Source of the DNA: a virus
Lineage: Duplodnaviria > Caudoviricetes
DNA: 64,000 bases
Virus record (IMG/VR): IMGVR_UViG_3300042361_000498
Strand: one strand, 5' to 3'
Shown: piece after piece, positions 41,619 to 56,068 of the stretch
How the letters are laid out: every line of letters begins with the position of its first letter
Position numbering within the stretch: position 1 is the first letter of the stretch
Notes under the pieces: generated by a model
Told to the model about the DNA's origin: nothing
Seen by the model: the letters and a program-made list of their open reading frames with translations, nothing else
Database searches by the model: none
Program-made: the position numbers and the translations under genes

Positions 41619-42056
41619 ATGATTAAGTTAAAATCTTTACTAAACGAAGATGAGTATATAGACCAAGCATATGCTATGGGTGATACTCCGCAAGATAATC
41701 CAATTGATGATTATGATGAATTGGATGTTGAGCAAGAAGATATGGATGACTTTATTGCATACTTACAACAATACTCAAACGAATTGAATGAGACAAATTG
41801 TAATTGTGTGTTTGAAGCAGAATATCAGGGAAGAGAAGTAAAGTTAGGGAAACCGATGCAAGGCGATGTAAAGAAATTTAAGGTCTACGTCAAAAACCCA
41901 AAAACAGGTAAGGTGATTAAAGTGAATTTTGGACAGAAGGGAATGGTTATTAAAAAAGACAATCCAGCAAGACGAAAATCATTTAGAGCAAGAATGAATT
42001 GTGATAATCCCGGTCCAAGAACAAAGGCAAACTATTGGAGTTGTCGAAAATGGTAA
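41619..42056 (+). CDS. Probable head-packaged protein (DUF6321-like basic C-terminal domain)
   Basis: MIKLKSLLNE leader, acidic linker, KKFKVYVKNPKTG...VNFG...RRKSFRARMNC...YWSC. Confidence 0.65.
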   Translation: MIKLKSLLNEDEYIDQAYAMGDTPQDNPIDDYDELDVEQEDMDDFIAYLQQYSNELNETNCNCVFEAEYQGREVKLGKPMQGDVKKFKVYVKNPKTGKVIKVNFGQKGMVIKKDNPARRKSFRARMNCDNPGPRTKANYWSCRKW

Positions 42057-43898: not shown

Positions 43899-44780
43899 AT
43901 GAAAAAAATAAAGCACAGTAAATTCAAAAATACTGGAGTGTTATTTGAATTATTAGTAAGACAAATAACATTAGAGGTATTGAATGGAGATAAAACGGAA
44001 AATGCTAAGAAGATAGTTAAGGAGTTTTTTGCTCCCGGAACGGAACTTAATAAAGAGTTACGTTTGTATGAACTACTTTTAAAAGAAAAATATAATACGG
44101 AGAGTAGAGCAGAGAAATTTGTAGATACTGTATCCCAAGCTCACTCAAAATTAAATGAGGGAAAACTAGCTAAAGAAAAATATGGTTTAATTAAAGAAAT
44201 TGGTGCTAAATTCGAAATAGAGCAATTCTTATCATCGCCAATTACCAACTACAAAGTATTAGCTTCAATTTATAAAGTATTTGAATCTAAAAAATCGGAA
44301 AACTACGATATTAAAGATATATTCAATTCGAAGATTACCCTAATTGAAAACATCATAGCAAGACCTGCTAAAGTAGAAGCAGTTAAAAATGTTGAATCGA
44401 TTAAGTTAATGGAAACTTATTCTCAACAAGAAAAAGATTTACGTTTATTGACTTATAAGATATTGGTTGAAACTTTCAATAAAAAATATACTAATTTAGA
44501 TACAAAACAAAAAGGCTTGTTGAAAGAGTATATTAACAATATGAGTAACACAACTAAATTCAAAGATTATGTTGTTACCGAAGTTCCTAAAATCGCAAAA
44601 GAACTTAGATTAATTGAAACTAAAGTTTGTGATAAAGTAACTAAAATCAAATTATTAGAAACAATTTCAGTATTAGAAAAAATGAAGATTGGAAAGACTG
44701 TTTCCGATTCTCAAGTTTCATCTATTATGCTTTCTTATGAATTAGTTAAAGAATTAAAGAACAAAGTAAATGGAAAATAA
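43899..44780 (+). CDS. Conserved head-module hypothetical protein
   Basis: 293-aa helical ORF between portal and protease; KHSKFKNTG N-terminus. Confidence 0.7.
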   Translation: MKKIKHSKFKNTGVLFELLVRQITLEVLNGDKTENAKKIVKEFFAPGTELNKELRLYELLLKEKYNTESRAEKFVDTVSQAHSKLNEGKLAKEKYGLIKEIGAKFEIEQFLSSPITNYKVLASIYKVFESKKSENYDIKDIFNSKITLIENIIARPAKVEAVKNVESIKLMETYSQQEKDLRLLTYKILVETFNKKYTNLDTKQKGLLKEYINNMSNTTKFKDYVVTEVPKIAKELRLIETKVCDKVTKIKLLETISVLEKMKIGKTVSDSQVSSIMLSYELVKELKNKVNGK

Positions 44781-45336
44781 ATTAAGAGAAATAATCAGAA
44801 CATTAGTCAAAGAGATTCAATCCGAAGATGAATTGGAGGAAATGACTGGAACTGGTGCAGTTGCTGGTTACAACACTCCTGCTGCATTTTCTAAACCCGG
44901 TCAAACTGGAAAGAAAAACAATAGATTAGCTAAAGTTACTGGTGGGACTGTTGTAGATGATTTAGAGGAAGGTAAATTAAAAGAAGATATTGGTGTATTG
45001 GATTTAGACCCACATAAATTAAAACCAACAGCAACTCCATCAAAAAAAGAAAATGATAAAGATGAAACTATGGCAGATGTATCTTCTATGGAATTGGTTG
45101 AAAATCGTTGGTTAGAATTAAAAAGAGAAGATGCTTCTCCACAAAAGAAAATAGCTGTGGGATTGAGAAGTGTAAAATCTCAATTATCTGAAATTGAAAA
45201 GTTTGTTAATTGGTATTCAAGATTAAAAACTGAAAACAATTTGGACAGAACAGGTTACTACAAAAGAACATATAGTAACTTAAATACTATCAAAGAAAGA
45301 TTAAATAAAATAGCGGAGAAAATCCACTCAATGTAA
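44770..45336 (+). CDS. Head-module protein (probable internal/core protein)
   Basis: LREIIRTLVKE leader, LEEMTGTGAVAGY, several hydrophobic-X-E sites. Confidence 0.65.
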   Translation: MENKLREIIRTLVKEIQSEDELEEMTGTGAVAGYNTPAAFSKPGQTGKKNNRLAKVTGGTVVDDLEEGKLKEDIGVLDLDPHKLKPTATPSKKENDKDETMADVSSMELVENRWLELKREDASPQKKIAVGLRSVKSQLSEIEKFVNWYSRLKTENNLDRTGYYKRTYSNLNTIKERLNKIAEKIHSM

Positions 45337-45337
45337 T

Positions 45338-45544
45338 ATGGCAGGTATAACAAAACAAAAACTAAAAGAATTAGTTAAGGAAGTAATGGTAGAAGAAACT
45401 GAATATCAGGCATTCTTCCAAAAGGCATTAGATAAAGCTGGTAAATCTATTCCATCTATGAGTGATGATGAAAAGAAAGCATTCTTTGATAAAATTGATG
45501 CAGCATGGAATGGTAAAGGTGAAAAATCCGAATCCGTAAAATAA
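45338..45544 (+). CDS. Small head-module protein
   Basis: KLKELVKEVMVEE leader; operon context. Confidence 0.65.
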   Translation: MAGITKQKLKELVKEVMVEETEYQAFFQKALDKAGKSIPSMSDDEKKAFFDKIDAAWNGKGEKSESVK

Positions 45545-45551
45545 TAACAAA

Positions 45552-46139
45552 ATGAAGAATCTTTTAATAGAAACCAAATTATTCGAAGGAAAGGTGCAAG
45601 AGGATGCTGGTGGTAGAACTATCGTTAAAGGTGTTCTTCAAAGAGCTGGTGCGGAGAATCAAAATGGTAGAGTATATCCAAAACCTACATTGATGAGAGA
45701 AGCTCAAAAGTATGAGCAACTTATCAAAGAACGTAGAGCATTAGGTGAATTGGACCACCCTGATTCAACTGTAATCAACTTAAAGAACGTATCACACAAT
45801 GTTAGAGAAATCCATTGGGAGGGCGATGATTTATGTGGTACGGTTGAAATCCTTGCAACTCCATCTGGTAATATCCTTAAAGAATTACTTAAAGCTGGTA
45901 TCCTATTAGGTATATCATCAAGAGGTATGGGTTCTACAAAACAAATGGAAGGAAATAAAGTAGAAGTTCAGGAAGATTTTGAATTAATCGGTTGGGATTT
46001 TGTTTCTAATCCATCTACACATGGTGCATTTATGGTACCTGTAAACGAATCGGTAACAAAACAAATTGGAACTGATGTTTGCGGAGATTATTGCAAAGCA
46101 CAAGATTTAATGAGAGAAATTATAACTGAAATATCATAA
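45552..46139 (+). CDS. gp21: Prohead core protease (T4 gp21-like)
   Basis: NQNGRVYP, ALGELDHP (His), GISSRGMGS (Ser), DFVSNPS. Confidence 0.93.
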   Translation: MKNLLIETKLFEGKVQEDAGGRTIVKGVLQRAGAENQNGRVYPKPTLMREAQKYEQLIKERRALGELDHPDSTVINLKNVSHNVREIHWEGDDLCGTVEILATPSGNILKELLKAGILLGISSRGMGSTKQMEGNKVEVQEDFELIGWDFVSNPSTHGAFMVPVNESVTKQIGTDVCGDYCKAQDLMREIITEIS

Positions 46140-47310: not shown

Positions 47311-48825
47311 ATGATTAAATTAAATCAACTACTTAAAGAGGAAACGTTTACCGCAACTAATAAATCAACTGGTAAAACTTCTGTATTCAAATCTAAAGAT
47401 AGTAGAGATGCTGCAATCAAAGCAGGTACACATGATACTATAAAAGATAAAGAACAACCATCGGCACCAAAAGCAGCTGGTAGTGATATGTTTGGTGGAG
47501 ATTATACAAAAAATAGAGGTGGTGAAGCTCCTAAATCTGATGCTGGTAAAGAAGAAACTCCAAAGTATGATTTAGGTGTAGACTCAGTTGTATATAACAA
47601 AAGAACAAAGACAGTTGGTATTGTAAGATTGGGGGATGAAAGAGGTGAAACGAAAACTGATGCAGATGGTAATGTAAATACTGATGAGTTAGAACCATAC
47701 AACCCAATGAAGTTTCCATATCAAAAAGATGCACAAGTTGCACCATCAACATCAAAAGAAATTGAAAGTAGAAAGTTATTCAATCCGTTTTCACAAAAAA
47801 ATGACCCTATAAAATCAGAACCTAAAAACCAAAGAAAAGGTAATCCACAAGTAAACAAAGAAGCAAAAAAGAAAGCAGAACAATATGGTATTACTCCTCA
47901 AAAGTTGGGTAATGAAAAATATAAAGAAGCAATGTTACAAGCAGCAGTTTCTGCATTAACTGATTCAAACTTCCATAGTGAAGCAAGAGAATTAGTTGCA
48001 GCAATTGAAGGAAAGCCTGAATTTGCAAAAAAACCGGAGTACCCATCGATGAAAGACCCTAAGTATAAAGAAAAAATGGCAGATATTCGTAAGAATTCCG
48101 CAGATGGTTCGATTTATATGAATGGTACTGGTGAGATTGATGATTATGGTACGGATGTATCACAAGCATCTGGATGGGATGGTGTTGATGCAGCGGATAG
48201 TATTGCATTTACATTAAGAATGAATGGTTTCCATAAAGAAGCAGATTTGATTCAATCGGTATTTGATAATAAACCATATATGAAAAATGAGGGTACAATT
48301 AAATTAACAAAGTTAATGGAAAATGACCCTTGTTGGAAGGGATACAAACAAGTTGGAATGAAAGACAAGAATGGTAGAGAAGTTCCAAATTGTGTGCCTG
48401 AAGGAATTGTGAATGAGCAAACATCATATGCATTTGGTAAACAACAATATACCCAAAAAACTCTTACACCATCTCAAATTTTAGATTTAGCTACTGCATA
48501 TGTAAATGTACCAAATTTGGAAAAAATTTTTAATGGTAAACTTGATAATATAGTTAATGTAGCTAATGATTTGGCTAGATTAAATGGTACTATTCAATTA
48601 GATGCAAAAACAAGAGGTAAAAAACCCGCACTTATATTATCTTTATTAAACAATAAATTAATTAGTAAAGATGATTATGTTAAATTGTATAGAAACTTAA
48701 TAGAAAAACAAATATTGACTGTAAAAAGATTAAAAAATGCAGACCCAGCATCAAGAATGATAAAGGGAGCAGCTGCTAGACAAGCTTATAAAGATATGAA
48801 GGGTGAGTTTGATGAAACAGATTAG
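47311..48825 (+). CDS. Probable head-packaged modular protein
   Basis: Start moved to ATG 47311 (MIKLNQLLKE) just after the previous stop; internal IKLTKLME and CWKGYKQVG...VPNCVP module. Confidence 0.7.
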   Translation: MIKLNQLLKEETFTATNKSTGKTSVFKSKDSRDAAIKAGTHDTIKDKEQPSAPKAAGSDMFGGDYTKNRGGEAPKSDAGKEETPKYDLGVDSVVYNKRTKTVGIVRLGDERGETKTDADGNVNTDELEPYNPMKFPYQKDAQVAPSTSKEIESRKLFNPFSQKNDPIKSEPKNQRKGNPQVNKEAKKKAEQYGITPQKLGNEKYKEAMLQAAVSALTDSNFHSEARELVAAIEGKPEFAKKPEYPSMKDPKYKEKMADIRKNSADGSIYMNGTGEIDDYGTDVSQASGWDGVDAADSIAFTLRMNGFHKEADLIQSVFDNKPYMKNEGTIKLTKLMENDPCWKGYKQVGMKDKNGREVPNCVPEGIVNEQTSYAFGKQQYTQKTLTPSQILDLATAYVNVPNLEKIFNGKLDNIVNVANDLARLNGTIQLDAKTRGKKPALILSLLNNKLISKDDYVKLYRNLIEKQILTVKRLKNADPASRMIKGAAARQAYKDMKGEFDETD

Positions 48826-48853: not shown

Positions 48854-48881
48854 AAAAGCTTGGTAATCCCAAGCTTTTTTT
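48854..48881 (+). terminator. Rho-independent terminator overlapping the downstream promoter
   Basis: AAAAGCTTGG-TAATC-CCAAGCTTTT followed by further T residues. Confidence 0.75.
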
Positions 48882-48890
48882 GTATATTTG
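48859..48890 (+). promoter_or_regulatory. Bacteroidota sigma-A type promoter
   Basis: CTTG-N20-TATATTTG upstream of the methyltransferase. Confidence 0.7.
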
Positions 48891-48910
48891 TGGTTACTAT
48901 AATAAAACCC

Positions 48911-50245
48911 ATGGCAATTAAACCATTTTCAATTTTAGATACTCGCACCAAAGAATGGCAAGACCGTAAACGTTGGTGGATACAAACCTATAATATCAAA
49001 TCAGAGTTAGGTAGGGAAGATACTCAATCAAATAGTAAGTTTTGGGATGATGAAGATACTGTTTCAGTATTCGATGCTACTCTATCCGAAAAGATGTATG
49101 AGTGGTTTGTTCCAAAGGGTGGTAAGATATTAGACCCATTTGCTGGCGGAAGTGTGAGGGGAATTGTGGCAACGGAGATGGGATTCAAATATGATGGTAT
49201 CGATATATCACAAACACAAATAGATGCAAATAGAAAACAATCCGATAAACCTCGATGGATGGGTGGGGATAGTTACCTATTATTAAATGTATTGGAGGAG
49301 AATACCTATGATTTTGTATTTACTTGCCCACCATACTACGATTTGGAGGTATATAGTGATAATGCGAATGATTTATCTAATATGGCGGATGCACAATTTG
49401 ATGATAGATACATTTCTATATTACAAAAATCAGCAGAAAAGTTAAAGAACAATAGATTCTTTGCAGTTGTGGTATCGGAAGTTAGAGAGGTATCAAAGAC
49501 AGGGGATTACAAAATTGGAAAGTATAGAGGATTGGTAAACAAAACTATTTCAGCAATGGAAGAAGTTGGTTTACACTTCTATAACGATATGGTACTATTT
49601 AATTCACAACATCAGGCTGGAAGAGTGGTAGATACATATTTCAAACGTAATCGTAAGGTAGCATCTGTTCATCAAAACGTATTAGTATTTGTAAAAGGAA
49701 ATCCTGATTTGGCAACGGAAGATATTGAATGGGATGGTACTTACAAATGTGTAGTTGGTGGAAAACAATACAAATCATTCAGAGAAGCGGCAATTTCAAT
49801 AAATCCAAATGAGTTAGTAGCATCGGAAGTAGAAAGAAGATGCCTTTCACCAAAAACCAAATACAAAGGGTGGCAGGTAAATGGTGAGGAAACATATCCT
49901 ATCTTAAAATATTGTATAGATGGGTATTACTTTGAGTCTCCTGTACAAGCTGCAGAGTACATTGAATATAGTGAAACTGAAATTCGTAATCGTTTAGAAT
50001 CAAAAGCTGACCATTATAGACATTGGAAAAAGTTGGAAACTCCTTTAACAACTATTACTTATGATGCACATGAAAGGACTCTAAAGGACATCCAAGTTAG
50101 AGATAAGGTACATACGATAAGTTGTGAGGGAGAACTATTCTACACACTAAAAGATGCAGGTGAAAGATTTGGTGTATCGGATGAACGAATCAGACAAAAA
50201 ATCCAATCGGACAAACATACTGACTATTTTTACTTATTTTCATAG
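48911..50245 (+). CDS. Amino (N4-C/N6-A) DNA methyltransferase with three C-terminal NUMOD1/HTH-like repeats
   Basis: DPFAGGS (motif I) and FTCPPYY (motif IV); repeats CVVGGKQYKSFREAA, CIDGYYFESPVQAA, CEGELFYTLKDAG. Start moved to ATG 48911. Confidence 0.8.
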   Translation: MAIKPFSILDTRTKEWQDRKRWWIQTYNIKSELGREDTQSNSKFWDDEDTVSVFDATLSEKMYEWFVPKGGKILDPFAGGSVRGIVATEMGFKYDGIDISQTQIDANRKQSDKPRWMGGDSYLLLNVLEENTYDFVFTCPPYYDLEVYSDNANDLSNMADAQFDDRYISILQKSAEKLKNNRFFAVVVSEVREVSKTGDYKIGKYRGLVNKTISAMEEVGLHFYNDMVLFNSQHQAGRVVDTYFKRNRKVASVHQNVLVFVKGNPDLATEDIEWDGTYKCVVGGKQYKSFREAAISINPNELVASEVERRCLSPKTKYKGWQVNGEETYPILKYCIDGYYFESPVQAAEYIEYSETEIRNRLESKADHYRHWKKLETPLTTITYDAHERTLKDIQVRDKVHTISCEGELFYTLKDAGERFGVSDERIRQKIQSDKHTDYFYLFS

Positions 50246-50284
50246 AATCTAATATTTATTCCATATAACCAAAGGAATAATATT

Positions 50285-52456
50285 ATGCCTGCAAAATCAA
50301 AAGCACAACAAAGATTTATGGGAATGGTTCACGCCGCTCAAAAGGGTGAATTAGATAATCCATCATCGGAAGTTGAAAAAGTAGCTGATTCAATGAGTGA
50401 TGCAGACGCAAAAGATTATGCATCAACTAAACACAAAGGTTTACCCAATCATGTGAAAAAAGAAAATATGGAAAAACAATTAAAAGAAATCATCCGTCAA
50501 ACATATAGAGAGAGTTTGAGAGAATCGGTAAACGAAGATGCAACTGAATTGCCTCAAGCAACAATACCATCCGCTGTAAAAGTTAAATTACAAATGGCTA
50601 TTGATAAAATAAAAGATTCAAAGTTAAGTAACAATGCAAAATTACAATTGGTGGCACAAGTAATAGATGCATTAGATGTGGATAAATCTCAATTATCAAA
50701 TATTGCAAATAAGATTCGTTCTAAAATGGAATCGGTAAACGAAGCTAAGATACAACCAAAAGATGATTGGGGAGTTAGATTAGTTGTGGCTATTAATAAT
50801 AATGTTGCTGCATTACATACATCCGTTATAAGAGAAAAGAAAGATGTACAGCAAGCAGTTGCTGCTTTTGGTAATGTGTTAAAAAATGCTATTAAAGAAA
50901 CTCTAAAGCACAAATACAAACCACATCCAAAATATACTGAAGCTGATAGCAAAATAAAAACATTTATTTCTGAACTTAAAAAGTTTGAAAATATTGTAGA
51001 TATGGTTATTTCTAAACCAACAAAATCTGGTATTGTAAAATTGGATGATGCTTGGCGAAATATTTGGAATCATAAATATGGTGCGGCAATTGCGTTATCT
51101 GGTGATTTGTTTAATAGTATTATAGAAAACGAATCGGTAAACGAAGCAAAATACCCAACCAATTTATATGTTGGTTCTATAATTTATGGACAAGGATTTA
51201 CTGGATTAAAAGGAATCGAAGGTGGTAAATACTACAAAGTTGTTGAAATGGATGATACTACTGCAACATTAGCACCATGCGACCAAAAAGGTAAGATAAC
51301 AGGTTCAAAGAAAGTTAGACATAAATTAGATTCAATCGAAGGTGGTATCAAAACTGCTAAAAGAGGAGATGAAAACGGAATTGTTATCGAATCGGTTATT
51401 GTTGAAGATATTAAATCCGATATAAACAAATTCTTAGATAAATTAAACAAACAATTTCCTGAACAAGAATATACTACCGATTTCAAAGGTGGAAAATATG
51501 CTAGAATTGTTCAACAAAATAGAAAATATTCTGGAAATCGTTCTGCATGGGGATTTGTAGCAATGGAAGATAATCCATCCAAAGGATTTAAGAAAGGAGA
51601 TTTATTAAAAGCAGCAGGATTTAATACACCTGCAAAGGGTGCTAGGGGTAATATATTAGATGGTACTGCAAAATATGATAAATACTCACCAGTATATTTA
51701 AGAGAATCCGTAAACGAATCAATATCACATGAAGCAATGGGAATCGCTTCAATGACTAACACTAGAAAAGAGGCAGTTCAAAAGTTTATTGATGATAACA
51801 ACTTAAATGCAAAAGAAATATTAACTCACGTTACCAAAGGCAAATTGCCGGAGAGAATTCGTTTTGTTCAGGCATTAGTTGGAACTCCTAATAATTCTTC
51901 TTTCAAATGGTATGTAAAAAATTACACAAACGAATCGGTAGTAACTGAAGGAAAGAAAGCATTCAAAATAAATCCACCAATCGGTAAAGCAAAATATAGT
52001 ATTAGTGCTCACAATGGTGTATCAAAACACAAAGATGGTAGTGATTTTTGGGATATTCTTATCTTTAAGAACAAAGCAGATTTAGAAAGAAGAGCTAAAT
52101 ATTTTAGAGGTGAAAAATACATTGAAGAATCGGTAATCAAAGAAGGTGTTTACAAATCAATTTTATCAAATAACAAAGGAAAGTTATTCTTTAGTTTAGT
52201 TGATGATGAAACTGATAAAGTAACGGATGTTGATGCAAAGGCTTGGTTAAAATCAACTATTAAAGATAAATCATCCGATAACTCAAAAGAATTGGTATTA
52301 AGTGCATTAGTAAGACAAATCAATCAATTTAATAAAAAAGTTGATTTTAATATGTGGGTTAATGCTAACAAACCAACTTGGGAAGAAAAGGTTAAATATT
52401 TGTTTGATAAGGGATTAGCAAACAACGTAAATAAGACTGGTATTAAGGTTCATTAA
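50285..52456 (+). CDS. Cassette-like polyprotein of eight small domains joined by ESV(N/I/V)(x)E linkers; probable head-packaged protein
   Basis: Seven linkers; N-terminal PAKSKAQQ (DUF3008-like); KYARIV...SAWGFV...GDLLKAAGFNTPAKGARGNI module. Confidence 0.75.
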   Translation: MPAKSKAQQRFMGMVHAAQKGELDNPSSEVEKVADSMSDADAKDYASTKHKGLPNHVKKENMEKQLKEIIRQTYRESLRESVNEDATELPQATIPSAVKVKLQMAIDKIKDSKLSNNAKLQLVAQVIDALDVDKSQLSNIANKIRSKMESVNEAKIQPKDDWGVRLVVAINNNVAALHTSVIREKKDVQQAVAAFGNVLKNAIKETLKHKYKPHPKYTEADSKIKTFISELKKFENIVDMVISKPTKSGIVKLDDAWRNIWNHKYGAAIALSGDLFNSIIENESVNEAKYPTNLYVGSIIYGQGFTGLKGIEGGKYYKVVEMDDTTATLAPCDQKGKITGSKKVRHKLDSIEGGIKTAKRGDENGIVIESVIVEDIKSDINKFLDKLNKQFPEQEYTTDFKGGKYARIVQQNRKYSGNRSAWGFVAMEDNPSKGFKKGDLLKAAGFNTPAKGARGNILDGTAKYDKYSPVYLRESVNESISHEAMGIASMTNTRKEAVQKFIDDNNLNAKEILTHVTKGKLPERIRFVQALVGTPNNSSFKWYVKNYTNESVVTEGKKAFKINPPIGKAKYSISAHNGVSKHKDGSDFWDILIFKNKADLERRAKYFRGEKYIEESVIKEGVYKSILSNNKGKLFFSLVDDETDKVTDVDAKAWLKSTIKDKSSDNSKELVLSALVRQINQFNKKVDFNMWVNANKPTWEEKVKYLFDKGLANNVNKTGIKVH
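50522..52144 (+). repeat. Dispersed 15-bp repeat GAATCGGTAAACGAA (three exact copies, four variants)
   Basis: Exact at 50522, 50729 and 51131; variants at 51389, 51704, 51932 and 52127. Confidence 0.85.
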
Positions 52457-52675
52457 TACCATTCTTAAAAAATATAGAAAAAACTAAAGAAAATTAAACA
52501 TATTTTTATGTTTAATTTTTTTTTATATACTTATTGATAACAATAACCTATTTCATATAGGTTTAAGACAGTTGGTTAATGAATACCCATTTATATGAGG
52601 TGACCGAACAACCGAACTACCTACATTGAAGTCCCAAATCAAATGACTTCAGAATAAGAAAAACAAAGTAAAAGA

Positions 52676-53767
52676 ATGGCAAGTTCAAAATTATTAAAAG
52701 AAGCTATCGCTGACGCTAAAGCTGTACGTGAAACTGCTATTGCCAACGCTAAAATCGCATTAGAAGAAGCATTTACTCCTCGTTTACAATCTATTCTTTC
52801 TAGAAAATTACAAGCCGAAATGGAAGGTGATGAAGAAGAAGCAGATATGAACGAAGATAATGATGTATCTAGTGAAATTGGTAAGGGTGATAACGCAGAA
52901 CCAGCAGTAAACGCAAACGATGGTAATACTGACTTGAGTGGAATCGCTTCACAATCAGCACAAGCTGGTGATGAGTTAGAAGGACACGAAGAAGTAGATG
53001 ATTTAATGGAAGGCGAAGACGAAGAAGCACCGGCAATGGAAGGTGAAGAAGAGGCTGAGTACGCAGCAGAAGGTGAAGAAATGGCACCTGAAGCTGATGA
53101 AGATGAGTTAGATTTAGAATCTATCATCAGAGAATTAGAAGATGAGTTAGGTATGGAAGAATCCGATGAATTAGGATACGAAGACCCAACAGGAGTTGAG
53201 ACAGCATACGAAGGAGAAGATGAAGAAGCACCGGCAATGGAAGGTGAAGAAGAAGAAGCTCCAGCTATGGAAGAGGAAGAAGAAACTATCGATTTAGACG
53301 AAATCCTTCGTGAGATGGGTTACGGAGATGATGAAGAAGTTTCTGAAGAAGAAGAAGCAGGAAACGAAGAAGAAATGGCAGCAATGCAATCTGAATTGAA
53401 AGAAGCATATTCAACTATTCAATCTTTGAGAAAAACTATCAACGAAGTAAATTTATTAAACGCTAAATTACTTTACACTAACAAATTGTTCAGAGGATAT
53501 AATCTAACTAATGAGCAAAAAATTAAAGTTGTAGAGAATTTAGACAGAACTTCTAACGTAAGAGAAGTTAAATTGGTTTACGCAACATTATCTGAATCAA
53601 TGAAATTCACTGGTACTGAAAGAAAAGTAGCACAAGCTAAGAAAAGCATAACTGAAGGGTTAGCATCTAAGCCATCTGCTTCAACTGCACCGGTAAAACA
53701 AATTATTTCGGAAAATACAAATGAATTAGCAAATCGCTTTAAGCAATTAGCTGGTATCATTAAATAA
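52676..53767 (+). CDS. Prohead scaffolding/core protein (T4 gp22-like)
   Basis: Highly acidic; helical ends (EVNLLNAKLLYTNKLF; RFKQLAGI); directly upstream of the major capsid gene. Confidence 0.8.
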   Translation: MASSKLLKEAIADAKAVRETAIANAKIALEEAFTPRLQSILSRKLQAEMEGDEEEADMNEDNDVSSEIGKGDNAEPAVNANDGNTDLSGIASQSAQAGDELEGHEEVDDLMEGEDEEAPAMEGEEEAEYAAEGEEMAPEADEDELDLESIIRELEDELGMEESDELGYEDPTGVETAYEGEDEEAPAMEGEEEEAPAMEEEEETIDLDEILREMGYGDDEEVSEEEEAGNEEEMAAMQSELKEAYSTIQSLRKTINEVNLLNAKLLYTNKLFRGYNLTNEQKIKVVENLDRTSNVREVKLVYATLSESMKFTGTERKVAQAKKSITEGLASKPSASTAPVKQIISENTNELANRFKQLAGIIK

Positions 53768-53793: not shown

Positions 53794-55449
53794 ATGGCAA
53801 ATTTTGATTTATCCAAGTTAATGGAAGGCAAAAACCCACAAGCAGTAATGTTGGCTGAAACACGTCAATTGAAATCTAAGTGGGAGAAAACCGGTCTATT
53901 AGAAGGTATGAAAGATAGAGACCAACACTCTATGGCAGTTCTTTTAGAGAACCAAGCTAAGCAATTGTTGGACGAGGCAACTCAAACTGGTACTTCTTCT
54001 GGTTCAGAAGAGTGGAGTGGTGTAGCTTTACCTTTAGTAAGAAGAATCTTCGGTGAGATTGCTTCTAAAGAATTCGTTAGTGTACAACCTATGAACTTAC
54101 CTTCTGGTCTTGTATTCTTCTTAGATTTCAAATATGGTTCTTCACAAGGAGCAGCAGGACAATTCGGTGGAAAATCACTTTTCGGTGGTACTAACGCAAC
54201 TGGTTCAGCAGCTAACTTTGGTAGAACTGATGCAGCAACAGGTGGTTTATATGGTGAAGGCCGTTATGGTTATTCAGTAAACGATGCAACTGTAGCTGTT
54301 GCTGCTAGTAACATCACTTCTGCTTCAGCTACTTGGGCTGATTTAGGATACGATTCAGCATTATCAGCTTCTGCAGCTGCTAATAAAATTGTTAAATTAA
54401 CAATCGCATCTGCAAACATTTCGGCAACAGCTGATACTGAAGCAGTTCGTTCATTCCAAGCGGTTAATGCTGCTGGTGTTGCTGCATTTAACAACACTAA
54501 CTCTACATTAGGACAGTATAACTTTAAATCTGGTACTAATGTAACTTTATTCGTTTCTGCATCATCTTTAGCATTAGCTGGTGGTACAACTAACGTAATC
54601 TATTCTGAAGTTCCTGTAGCTTACGATAGAGGAGATTTTGAAGATTCAACTGCAAACGCTGCTGGTAACACAACAACTGCATTGGATATTCCTGAAATCG
54701 ACTTAGAATTGAAATCAGAGGCAATCGTTGCTAAGACTCGTAAGTTGAAAGCAGTTTGGACTCCTGAATTAGCTCAAGACTTAAACGCATATCACTCAAT
54801 CGATGCTGAAGCTGAATTAACTTCTATGTTATCTGATTATATCTCATTAGAGATTGACTTAGAAATCTTAGATATGTTAAAGAGCAACGCATTAACAACT
54901 GAATACTGGTCTGCAACTATTGGTGAAGAATACTTAAACAATGGTGCAACTGGACAAGCAGCTTGGGGTGGTGCAGTTTCTGCAATGGCTTACCAAAAGA
55001 ACACTTGGTTCCAGACTTTAGGAACTAAAATCAATAAGGTATCTAATAAGATTCACCAATTAACATTGAGAGGTGGAGCTAACTTCATCGTTGCTTCTCC
55101 TGATGTTTGTACTATCTTAGAATCTATTCCTGGATTCGTAGTAAACGCTGATAAAGATGCAACATCTTTCGCAGCTGGTGTAACTCAAGTAGGTGCTATG
55201 GCTAATCGCTACACTGTTTACAAAAACCCTTATATGACTTCTAACGAAATCTTATTAGGATATAGAGGTAACAACTTCTTAGAGACAGGTGCAGTTTACG
55301 CTCCATATGTTCCTTTGATTATGACTCCTTTAGTGTACGACCCACAAAACTTTACTCCACGTAGAGGTGTGATGACTCGTTACGCTAAGAAAATGGTGCG
55401 TCCTGAGTACTACGGTAAGATTTATGTTAAAGATTTGCAAAATATCTAA
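53794..55449 (+). CDS. gp23: Major capsid protein (T4 gp23-like)
   Basis: VSVQPMNLPSGLVFFL, AKTRKLKAVWTPELAQDLNAYH, YAPYVPL, DPQNFTPRRGVMTRY. Confidence 0.96.
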   Translation: MANFDLSKLMEGKNPQAVMLAETRQLKSKWEKTGLLEGMKDRDQHSMAVLLENQAKQLLDEATQTGTSSGSEEWSGVALPLVRRIFGEIASKEFVSVQPMNLPSGLVFFLDFKYGSSQGAAGQFGGKSLFGGTNATGSAANFGRTDAATGGLYGEGRYGYSVNDATVAVAASNITSASATWADLGYDSALSASAAANKIVKLTIASANISATADTEAVRSFQAVNAAGVAAFNNTNSTLGQYNFKSGTNVTLFVSASSLALAGGTTNVIYSEVPVAYDRGDFEDSTANAAGNTTTALDIPEIDLELKSEAIVAKTRKLKAVWTPELAQDLNAYHSIDAEAELTSMLSDYISLEIDLEILDMLKSNALTTEYWSATIGEEYLNNGATGQAAWGGAVSAMAYQKNTWFQTLGTKINKVSNKIHQLTLRGGANFIVASPDVCTILESIPGFVVNADKDATSFAAGVTQVGAMANRYTVYKNPYMTSNEILLGYRGNNFLETGAVYAPYVPLIMTPLVYDPQNFTPRRGVMTRYAKKMVRPEYYGKIYVKDLQNI

Positions 55450-55684: not shown

Positions 55685-56068
55685 ATGGCAGCAGCAAAAT
55701 ACTCATTTGTAATAGAACAAGGGGCAACATTAGATTTTCAATTAGATTGGACAGATGATATCGGTTCTCCAATTGATTTAACAGGTATGCATGCAAGAAT
55801 GCAAGTTAGACCTTCAGTTGAATCTTCCGAAGTATTTCTAAACCTTTCATCATCTCTATCCGATAGTTGTGGAACGGGATTGAATTTAAGTGGAAGTAAT
55901 GGAACAACTCCATTACAATCTGGTTCAATCGGTGTTTATGTATCTGCTGCATCATCTTCATTATTAACATTTGGTGAAGCATATTATGATTTAGAAGTAG
56001 TAAGTGGTTGTGAAGTTTATAGATTATTGGAGGGTAAAGTTCGTTTATCCAAAAATGTAACAAGATAA
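55685..56068 (+). CDS. Small Ig-like virion adaptor (BppU N-terminal-like)
   Basis: IEQGATLDFQLDW...IDLTG...ARMQVR...AYYDLEV...LLEG.V pattern. Confidence 0.7.
   Translation: MAAAKYSFVIEQGATLDFQLDWTDDIGSPIDLTGMHARMQVRPSVESSEVFLNLSSSLSDSCGTGLNLSGSNGTTPLQSGSIGVYVSAASSSLLTFGEAYYDLEVVSGCEVYRLLEGKVRLSKNVTR

Follow-up and report, generated by a model that had tools for sequence, protein, structure and literature searches.

The window analysed here is a stretch of 64,000 nt belonging to a 71.8-kb IMG/VR record, rated 36% complete, of a phage with 33% G+C. It carries a gene for a polyprotein in which eight small modules (M1 to M8) are joined by seven linkers of the ESVNE type, each linker being a short peptide motif and a stretch of conserved DNA of 15-18 bp at the same time (Table 1). 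Among relatives the modules are gained, lost and reordered as whole cassettes with breakpoints in the linker, and the linker probably doubles as the site at which a T4 gp21-type prohead protease would cut the chain into small internal head proteins.

The linker peptides (ESVNE at amino acids (aa) 80, 149, 283 and 474, ESVIVE at 369, ESVVTE at 550 and ESVIKE at 615) start in the DNA at positions 50522, 50729, 51131, 51389, 51704, 51932 and 52127, with in-frame spacers of 192, 387, 243, 297, 213 and 177 nt. Every linker and spacer agrees with an earlier note on this DNA, which had described seven linkers, three of them identical in DNA and one with a single-base change, between mutually unrelated domains. 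Three exact copies of GAATCGGTAAACGAA lie in the polyprotein open reading frame (ORF) together with one carrying a single mismatch (GAATCCGTAAACGAA). Matches to GAATCGGTAAACGAA with up to two mismatches numbered 5 compared to 0.15 expected from shuffles, and 0 of 100 shuffles reached 5. An all-against-all BLASTP of the eight modules yielded shared linker tails alone, confirming that the modules are mutually unrelated. The pattern ES[VIL]x(0-2)E occurs nine times in the polyprotein ORF (the seven linkers plus ESLRE and ESISHE) and at most once in each other large ORF of the window. The modules measure 7.5-15.1 kDa and all are basic (pI 7.99-9.70). No module of the polyprotein starts with Met and so separate module proteins could arise through proteolysis only. 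The identical 723-aa protein was found on 18 contigs, the longest of 279,674 bp, and the gene is present in at least 20 lake-water metagenome runs from 2020-2024.

Table 1. Features of the polyprotein locus and standalone homologues of its modules. Positions are those of the window, or a protein identifier for the homologues.
Feature	Position	Strand	Details
Polyprotein ORF	50285..52456	+	723 aa, 81 kDa, pI 9.4; eight modules, seven linkers; frame open
M1 (aa 1-84)	50285..50536	+	DUF3008 at aa 3-57 and leader-like helix QLKEIIRQTYRESLRESVNE
Linker 1, ESVNE	50522..50536	+	GAATCGGTAAACGAA; breakpoint in L001, L002 and L003
M2 (aa 85-153)	50537..50743	+	Helical; with linker 2 ESVNE at 50729-50743; missing in L001, L002 and L003
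M3 (aa 154-287)	50744..51145	+	Helical bundle; with linker 3 ESVNE at 51131-51145
M4 (aa 288-374)	51146..51406	+	Beta-rich; with linker 4 ESVIVE at 51389-51406
M5 (aa 375-478)	51407..51718	+	DUF7717-like; with linker 5 ESVNE (GAATCCGTAAACGAA) at 51704-51718; missing in L001, L002 and L003
M6 (aa 479-555)	51719..51949	+	Five-helix domain; with linker 6 ESVVTE at 51932-51949; commonest module
M7 (aa 556-620)	51950..52144	+	Small beta-plus-helix domain; with linker 7 ESVIKE at 52127-52144
M8 (aa 621-723)	52145..52456	+	C-terminal, no linker behind; with stop codon
Terminator-like AT-rich hairpin and U-run	52486..52527	+	After the polyprotein gene
145-aa ORF	41619..42056	+	Leader MIKLKSLLNE, like the 10-residue leaders of standalone cassette homologues
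Prohead protease, T4 gp21 type	45552..46139	+	PF03420 (Peptidase_S77) E 7.5e-26; phrog_207 E 2.6e-50; 4.1 kb upstream of the polyprotein gene
504-aa ORF	47311..48825	+	Leader MIKLNQLLKE; between protease and methylase
Acidic scaffold-like protein	52676..53767	+	Assigned by position and composition only; low-complexity
Major capsid protein, Gp23 family	53794..55449	+	PF07068 E 9.8e-76
M3 standalone homologue	P0181		MIKLKELLTE; boundary off by one residue
M4 standalone homologue	P0214		MIKLASLLKE then VQYPTDLK
M5 standalone homologue	P0162		MISLKSLLAE then DIKKDVDK
M6 standalone homologue	P0205		MMSLLSE then NASRTAME
M7 standalone homologue	P0245, 71 aa		MIKLKDLIKE then GKKAFKIN

Cassette Turnover Among Relatives

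A word-indexed search returned 789 relatives of 400-1229 aa that matched with high identity over only 12-70% of the query. A search without the word index of 1.84 billion cluster representatives gave 3,903 matches at E <= 0.001 (954 at <= 1e-10 and 95 at <= 1e-30), a family size of 3,903 50%-identity clusters. The 120 relatives of the first search set and a wider set of 257 were examined by splitting the proteins at the linkers and clustering the pieces, and a stricter clustering was used for counts since single linkage on the 120 proteins merged M3 and M4 through unsplit fusions.

The 257 relatives examined share the linker, as nearly all relatives do, and ESVNE occurs 242 times in the 120 proteins, alongside ESVVTE, ESVIKE, ESINE, ESVTE and ESVVNE. 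These 120 relatives display 96 distinct module architectures, with some modules at any position and several pairs found in both orders. Under the stricter clustering the 257 proteins resolved into 1,116 modules in 280 clusters, with 76.5 aa as the median for internal modules. In BLASTP alignments to P0001 the internal ends (n = 479) lay no more than 8 aa from a linker centre in 73% of cases compared to 16% expected, and in a MAFFT alignment of 30 relatives the gaps end at linkers, with M7 tandemly duplicated in some. M5, internal in the window protein, is the last module of six relatives and closes there with ...VYLR-stop, exactly ahead of where the linker would stand.

Three orthologous loci (L001, L002 and L003) have aligned flanks that are 80-98% DNA-identical to the window. 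L001 and L002 are without M2 and M5, and L003 is without M2, M3 and M5 and of M7 keeps only the first ~20 nt past linker 6. The DNA alignments of all three break off and resume on linkers, and adjacent pieces overlap by the linker's own 8-16 nt. The earlier note had pictured an expandable array in which cassettes are gained, lost and shuffled and had named a comparison of the orthologous locus as one check. Whole-module differences, order changes, tandem duplications and breakpoints in the linker repeat were all found, the last at L001-L003. As content varies and the breakpoints of orthologous loci fall in the linker, the cassette reading stands: cassettes are gained, lost and reordered with breakpoints in the linker.

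Two candidate joints in four lake metagenome runs (50627>50726 and 50670>51127, 3-4 nt before linkers 2 and 3) had sides of 18-26 nt, under the reliability limit, and were not used. Two separate polyprotein genes with ES(V/I)xE linkers were observed in each of L006, L037, L046, L131 and L139.

Cassettes flanked by repeated identical 15-mers are also what a true integron-like site-specific system would display, with a dedicated recombinase acting on the 15-bp repeat. Such a system is extremely improbable here, since ten ORFs scanned at 45.5-50.2 and 52.7-60.3 kb (except 55685-56068) gave no match to an integrase or recombinase family, the repeat is neither inverted nor palindromic and lies in frame within coding sequence, and changes in linker length and sequence preserve the peptide motif. 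The earlier note's description of an integron-like cargo system holds as an analogy only.

The Linker as a Putative Protease Site

T4 gp21 cleaves after the Glu in L/I-x-E (PMC9026906), and the linker had been proposed to fit a gp21-type site. Sequence logic backs this fit. Across 877 linkers in the 257 proteins, P3 was V or I in 97% and P1' was A, G, D or S in 77% (the P1 Glu is fixed by the definition of the search pattern), and linkers of 4-6 residues retain a [VI]-x-E end. The window linkers all end V/I-x-E, with D, A, A, D, S, G and G as the next residues. The seven internal [LIV]xE sites of P0001 are followed by I, K, T, L, N, M and R, which are large or charged, and no depletion of [LIV]xE was found inside the P0001 modules (7 observed compared to 6.0 expected).

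Five of the seven cargo modules (M3-M7) have standalone homologues whose leaders, 7-22 residues long, finish with [LIV]-x-E at the module start or no more than one residue away (Table 1). Where the leaders are 10 residues long, positions 4, 7 and 8 are hydrophobic and position 10 is Glu. The same positions are important in the T4 capsid targeting sequence (CTS) MKTYQEFIAE (PMC9026906, PMC8442874), in which targeting depends on residues 4 and 7 and processing on 8 and 10, and in which a Glu-to-Asp change at P1 stops processing (PMC9026906). Since a module has the same start, to within one residue, after a leader and after a linker, the linker Glu and the leader Glu are equivalent positions. This equivalence is what a shared processing site would predict and is the strongest new evidence pointing to one. 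The stretch aa 91-167 of the 504-aa leader-bearing ORF of the window shares 65% identity (E 6e-28) with a linker-bounded cassette of the relative P0032, indicating that modules move between the polyprotein and other leader-bearing genes of the head region. The 145-aa ORF with its own leader is a candidate single-cargo internal protein. Nine other viral records with such polyproteins were tested, and Peptidase_S77 was present in all nine, fragments of 35-57 kb included.

Modules and Their Homologues

M1 matches DUF3008 (PF11450) with 32.8 bits compared to a Pfam gathering cut-off of 24, covering profile positions 1-57 of 57. Among relatives the DUF3008 leader module (family F3) is the first module in 60 of 60 cases. 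The helix at the end of M1 resembles a second leader class, MKLTKTQLREIIREEMTSLNE and MKKSELRQIIKEELLRE, on standalone module homologues. A DUF3008-only homologue of M1 (69 aa, 61% identical to aa 1-70) is an annotated virion protein in cyanophage S-SCSM1, whose virion proteins were defined via mass spectrometry on CsCl-purified particles (PMC9602691). Two small ORFs upstream of the protease gene (in 44770-45544) have initial helices, MENKLREIIRTLVKEIQSE and MAGITKQKLKELVKEVMVEETE, that resemble the end of M1; they are possibly gp67/gp68-like core proteins or a further instance of the second leader class.

Searches of Pfam and PHROGs with single modules returned DUF3008, a weak DUF7717 and unnamed PHROGs, with no enzyme or peptidase domain. 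M5 matched phrog_5014 (E 1.2e-10), scored 20.3 bits against PF24835 (DUF7717; gathering score 27) and had an Atlas structure with a template modelling (TM) score of 0.77 to DUF7717 clusters. Its standalone homologues of ~110 aa come from viral clusters and from three T4-like phage isolates. A tblastn search of 50,697 isolated phage records with aa 85-723 gave three weak M5 homologues only, and no isolate with a proteome among these records carries such a polyprotein. A DUF7717-like standalone gene of Buttiauxella phage GuL6 (L143:1435-1764) starts MNTFEILAEK, reminiscent of the T4 CTS, and one of Pelagibacter phage Mosig (L144:1336-1698) adjoins a tRNA cluster.

The M6 family (F1) accounts for 98 modules in the 120 proteins. 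An AlphaFold2 (AF2) model of M6 and M7 on 43 sequences predicted two confident domains, with a mean predicted local distance difference test (pLDDT) score of 86.8. Block means were 88-96 across model residues 1-70 (M6, alignment A3) and 83-94 across residues 81-130 (M7), and the linkers at residues 73-75 and 140-142 fell below 50. Block means of M3 were 59-89 across aa 161-260, and its structure matches are generic four-helix bundles only. A full-chain model from 30 relatives (mean pLDDT 49.8), which served for domain and linker confidence and not for fold search, had most of its pLDDT minima at or near linkers. Together the models suggest that the modules are folded beads on a flexible string.

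M7 matched only two unnamed proteins of 60-79 aa in the AlphaFold database clusters (TM by hit 0.72-0.90). A Foldseek search of the M6-M7 model against the PDB gave a best E of 0.22, and VIA-align against 48,161 chains gave a best Z of 6.2 to half a PH/FERM domain, where the noise level is 7-8. A resemblance of the model to AcrIF5 (Z 4.5) was not meaningful. Two leads from the Atlas, a WGR-like fold for M7 (TM 0.33 by query and 0.65 by row) and a cytochrome-b562-like bundle for M3, were set aside with nothing else backing them.

A bead string could also work whole, as an internal head or core component or as a surface array, with ESVNE acting as a flexible hinge. Flexible linkers between the domains are indeed predicted, and polyvalent multi-domain proteins delivered unprocessed are known (PMC5512222). 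A hinge, however, needs no invariant Glu after V/I-x and before a small residue. The same module start after the [LIV]-x-E leaders of standalone homologues is expected of a processing site and not of a hinge, and the C-terminal copy of M5 stops exactly before the linker. We regard an uncut chain as improbable.

Genome Neighbourhood

The genes are arranged in the order 587-aa ORF, three small ORFs, protease, three ORFs, methyltransferase, polyprotein, scaffold-like ORF and capsid. The same order was found on a 275-kb contig (L140), and the 587-aa ORF matches the Portal_T4 gene of this syntenic contig. The earlier note had placed a gp21 gene 4 kb upstream of the polyprotein and the scaffold and capsid genes just downstream of it, an arrangement that Table 1 bears out for the Peptidase_S77 gene and the Gp23-family capsid gene, and for the scaffold-like ORF by position and composition. 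The latter gave no Pfam or PHROG match. The protease is presumed to be the processing enzyme of the polyprotein.

The capsid protein is closest (51-55% identity) to those of an uncultured 484-kb phage, Flavobacterium phage immuto and Microcystis phage Mel-JY01, a kinship that makes the phage a distant T4-type. Its N-terminal propeptide holds several L-x-E sites, with GLLE, LLEN and xxEA conserved with immuto. In immuto the protease and scaffold genes have no polyprotein gene between them, which makes this gene accessory.

The position of the gene among head-assembly genes, directly before the scaffold-like gene, would also suit scaffold-type core material like T4 gp22, gp67 and gp68, the modules being assembly filler whose pieces are expelled and not cargo. 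Core proteins of T4 are likewise processed at several sites, and the head is cleared of them (PMC5694885). This explanation is quite improbable. The modules are basic, independent and confidently folded domains in the models, compared to an acidic, low-complexity scaffold-like neighbour. Module homologues exist as standalone leader-bearing genes. Module content varies among close relatives and the whole gene is missing in immuto, the nearest isolate, which argues against an essential role in assembly.

Directly upstream of the polyprotein gene lies a methyltransferase gene (48860-50245; N6_N4_Mtase, phrog_12517) with a C-terminal I-TevI-type DNA-binding domain, conserved in L140. Downstream, the intergenic region (52457-52675, 219 nt) had a folding z of -5.1 compared to shuffles and holds, besides the AT-rich hairpin and U-run of Table 1, three more hairpins. 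A search of 50100-52800 gave no match in Rfam. In four lake metagenome runs the summed contig depth was 5-30x higher at 50228-50334 (DUF3008 start) and 52689-52795 (N-terminus of the scaffold-like protein) than in the rest of the locus, and these two segments seem to be common to many co-occurring phages.

Proposed Mechanism

We propose, with a probability of roughly 0.65, that the gene encodes a polyprotein targeted to the head, which the prohead protease cuts into small basic internal proteins and whose linker doubles as a recombination joint. The N-terminal DUF3008 module with its leader-like helix would take the chain into the assembling prohead core, and the gp21-type protease would cleave each ES(V/I)x(0-2)E linker behind its final Glu, freeing about eight small basic proteins of 7-15 kDa. 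The freed proteins would remain in the head alongside the DNA and probably accompany it into the cell. In evolution the linker would be the unit boundary, at which in-frame cassettes are lost, duplicated, inserted or reordered when linkers recombine with each other or a template switch takes place between them. Because each cassette ends in the same 15-18 bp, cassettes could swap without damage to the frame or to the cleavage sites, and selection would retain only clean products. We infer cleavage, packaging and injection of the products, and that recombination at the linker, and not selection by itself, is the mechanism. Protease processing and delivery in the capsid have good grounds behind them but stand as proposals.

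Codon Choice in the Linkers and Points Against the Mechanism

In the window linkers Ser was encoded by TCG in 6 of 7 cases compared to 7.5% of Ser codons genome-wide, and Asn by AAC in 4 of 4 compared to 31%. A comparison set of 42 linkers from 10 genes found through protein similarity displayed the same tendency. Ser was TCN in 42 of 42 (elsewhere in these genes 26% is AGY), made up of TCG 18, TCA 18, TCC 3 and TCT 3. Val was GTA in 36 of 37 compared to 42% elsewhere in the same genes, and Asn was AAC in 27 of 30 compared to 33%. The skew of the linkers at the nucleotide level is real.

Several observations weigh against the proposed mechanism, and the first of them concern this skew. Context bias covers part of it, since TCG makes up 21% of Ser codons before Val, GTA makes up 74% of Val codons before Asn, and GTA-AAC accounts for 29% of the Val-Asn pairs of the window. 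The capsid gene also prefers AAC, though neither GTA nor TCG. Pairwise codon identity at identical residues between distant relatives was 0.70-0.83 in linkers compared to 0.61-0.67 outside, a non-significant difference over 9-14 codons. Clean breakpoints, moreover, could come from selection on random events and not from recombination at the repeat. The polyprotein starts MPAKSKAQQRF, within DUF3008, and not with a CTS of ~10 residues ending in L/I-x-Glu, so that its targeting signal is assumed. The likely propeptide sites of the capsid protein are L-x-E (LLE, LDE) and not ESVNE, and thus the protease motif alone does not account for the strict E-S-V prefix. Finally, the polyprotein genes of L138 and L139 do not lie beside head genes, their neighbours being glycosyltransferase, 2OG-Fe(II) oxygenase and AdoMet-decarboxylase genes.

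The codon observations bear most directly on an explanation in which the linker matters at the protein level only, as a protease or hinge motif. Selection would then purge damaging rearrangements, and the likeness in DNA would reflect codon bias and common descent. The partial cover by context bias, the small pairwise synonymous excess, the free variation of the third position of Ser among relatives and the retention of the [VI]-x-E end at differing linker lengths all fit this explanation. The counts of GTA and AAC, however, lie above even the context expectation. The window linkers are more like each other, six of the seven sharing GAATCGGT, than like those of distant relatives, which mostly have GAATCAGT, and this fits homogenisation within a lineage. 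Neighbouring DNA alignments also overlap by exactly the linker. On balance we consider a role at the protein level only to be rather unlikely. Homogenisation via repeated recombination at the linker is the most economical account of the skew, with selection alone on clean products as a serious rival. The earlier note's claim that the repeat matters at the DNA level or was copied recently is thus borne out in part: the codons are strongly skewed, but context bias takes up a share of the skew and the synonymous excess between pairs is small and non-significant.

Significance

If the linkers are cut, one gene would be a changeable kit of about eight small capsid-carried proteins. In T4 the class of capsid-carried internal proteins includes the anti-restriction protein IPI* (PMC3012670), and an anti-defence or takeover role of the cargo is suggested by likeness to IPI* and is not a finding. 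As a tentative wider reading, which we hold to be possible at somewhat less than even odds, aquatic T4-like phages may possess a post-translational 'effector integron', a single late gene in which cassettes are swapped at a linker encoding a prohead-protease site, so that changeable small proteins are loaded into the capsid and injected with the DNA as first-wave anti-defence or takeover factors. With 280 clusters in 257 proteins the pool of modules is large and would be an easily recognised source of candidate injected proteins of this kind from uncultured lake and marine phages. One short sequence serving as processing site, frame-keeper and exchange joint would account for a fast turnover of cargo. 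The linker and the leaders together make a simple rule by which packaged cargo can be sought in T4-like metagenomic phages, and they could also act as a natural template for filling T4-type heads with several foreign proteins.

Comparison With Known Systems

Literature on DUF3008, ESVNE and phage polyproteins or CTS held no description of such a linker-cassette arrangement, and the systems that resemble it do so in part. Many unrelated domains (2-15) per polypeptide, mosaicism, a virion-gene context and predicted packaging and delivery are shared with the polyvalent proteins (PMC5512222). The latter carry identifiable conflict domains such as peptidases, ADP-ribosyltransferases, ParB-like DNases and RNases, often with a zincin-like peptidase, and have no uniform linker, whereas the polyprotein here has no functional-family match, no built-in peptidase and one uniform linker that fits the prohead protease motif. 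In the giant phages phiKZ, 201phi2-1 and SPN3US numerous head and ejection proteins are cut by a diverged gp21-type protease behind the Glu of a short motif, sometimes at several sites, and the leader of SPN3US gp53/gp54 ends ...RESVE (PMC5694885). These cuts, however, take long propeptides off single proteins, and no exchangeable array of cassettes with one linker is described there.

Exchange at short conserved sequences is known from T4-type genomes, in PeSL regulatory cassettes and hyperplastic regions, where such sequences beside variable genes reportedly mark the points of insertion, deletion and replacement between close relatives (PMC2839356, PMC4122927). PeSLs are described as composite promoter-terminator motifs flanking separate variable genes, whereas the conserved 15-18 bp here are coding, in frame and also a peptide motif. 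Integron arrays likewise hold ordered, unrelated cassettes that are bounded by repeats and gained, lost or reordered. The polyprotein differs from them in that it has no attC/attI structure, GAATCGGTAAACGAA is not self-complementary, and the cassettes are in-frame segments, proposed to be separated after translation, and not promoterless genes.

The closest likeness is to the internal proteins of T4 (IPI, IPII, IPIII) and its Alt, with which the polyprotein shares a T4-type head, a gp21-family protease and small, basic, non-conserved cargo. The internal proteins of T4 have a strongly basic character and undergo a single cut beside the 10-residue CTS (PMC8442874), and T-even phages differ widely in their cargo sets, in which the CTS alone is conserved (PMC3012670, PMC9026906, PMC8442874). 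The standalone cassette homologues share with this CTS the hydrophobic residues 4, 7 and 8 and Glu 10, after which they are presumably cut. In T4, however, each internal protein has a separate gene and its own leader, whereas up to about nine cargo domains stand here in one frame behind a single DUF3008 leader module, with the site repeated internally. The repeat is here also the boundary of cassette exchange. By analogy, the polyprotein would work like the T4 internal-protein/CTS system with its cargo fused in one frame, and not like an integron.

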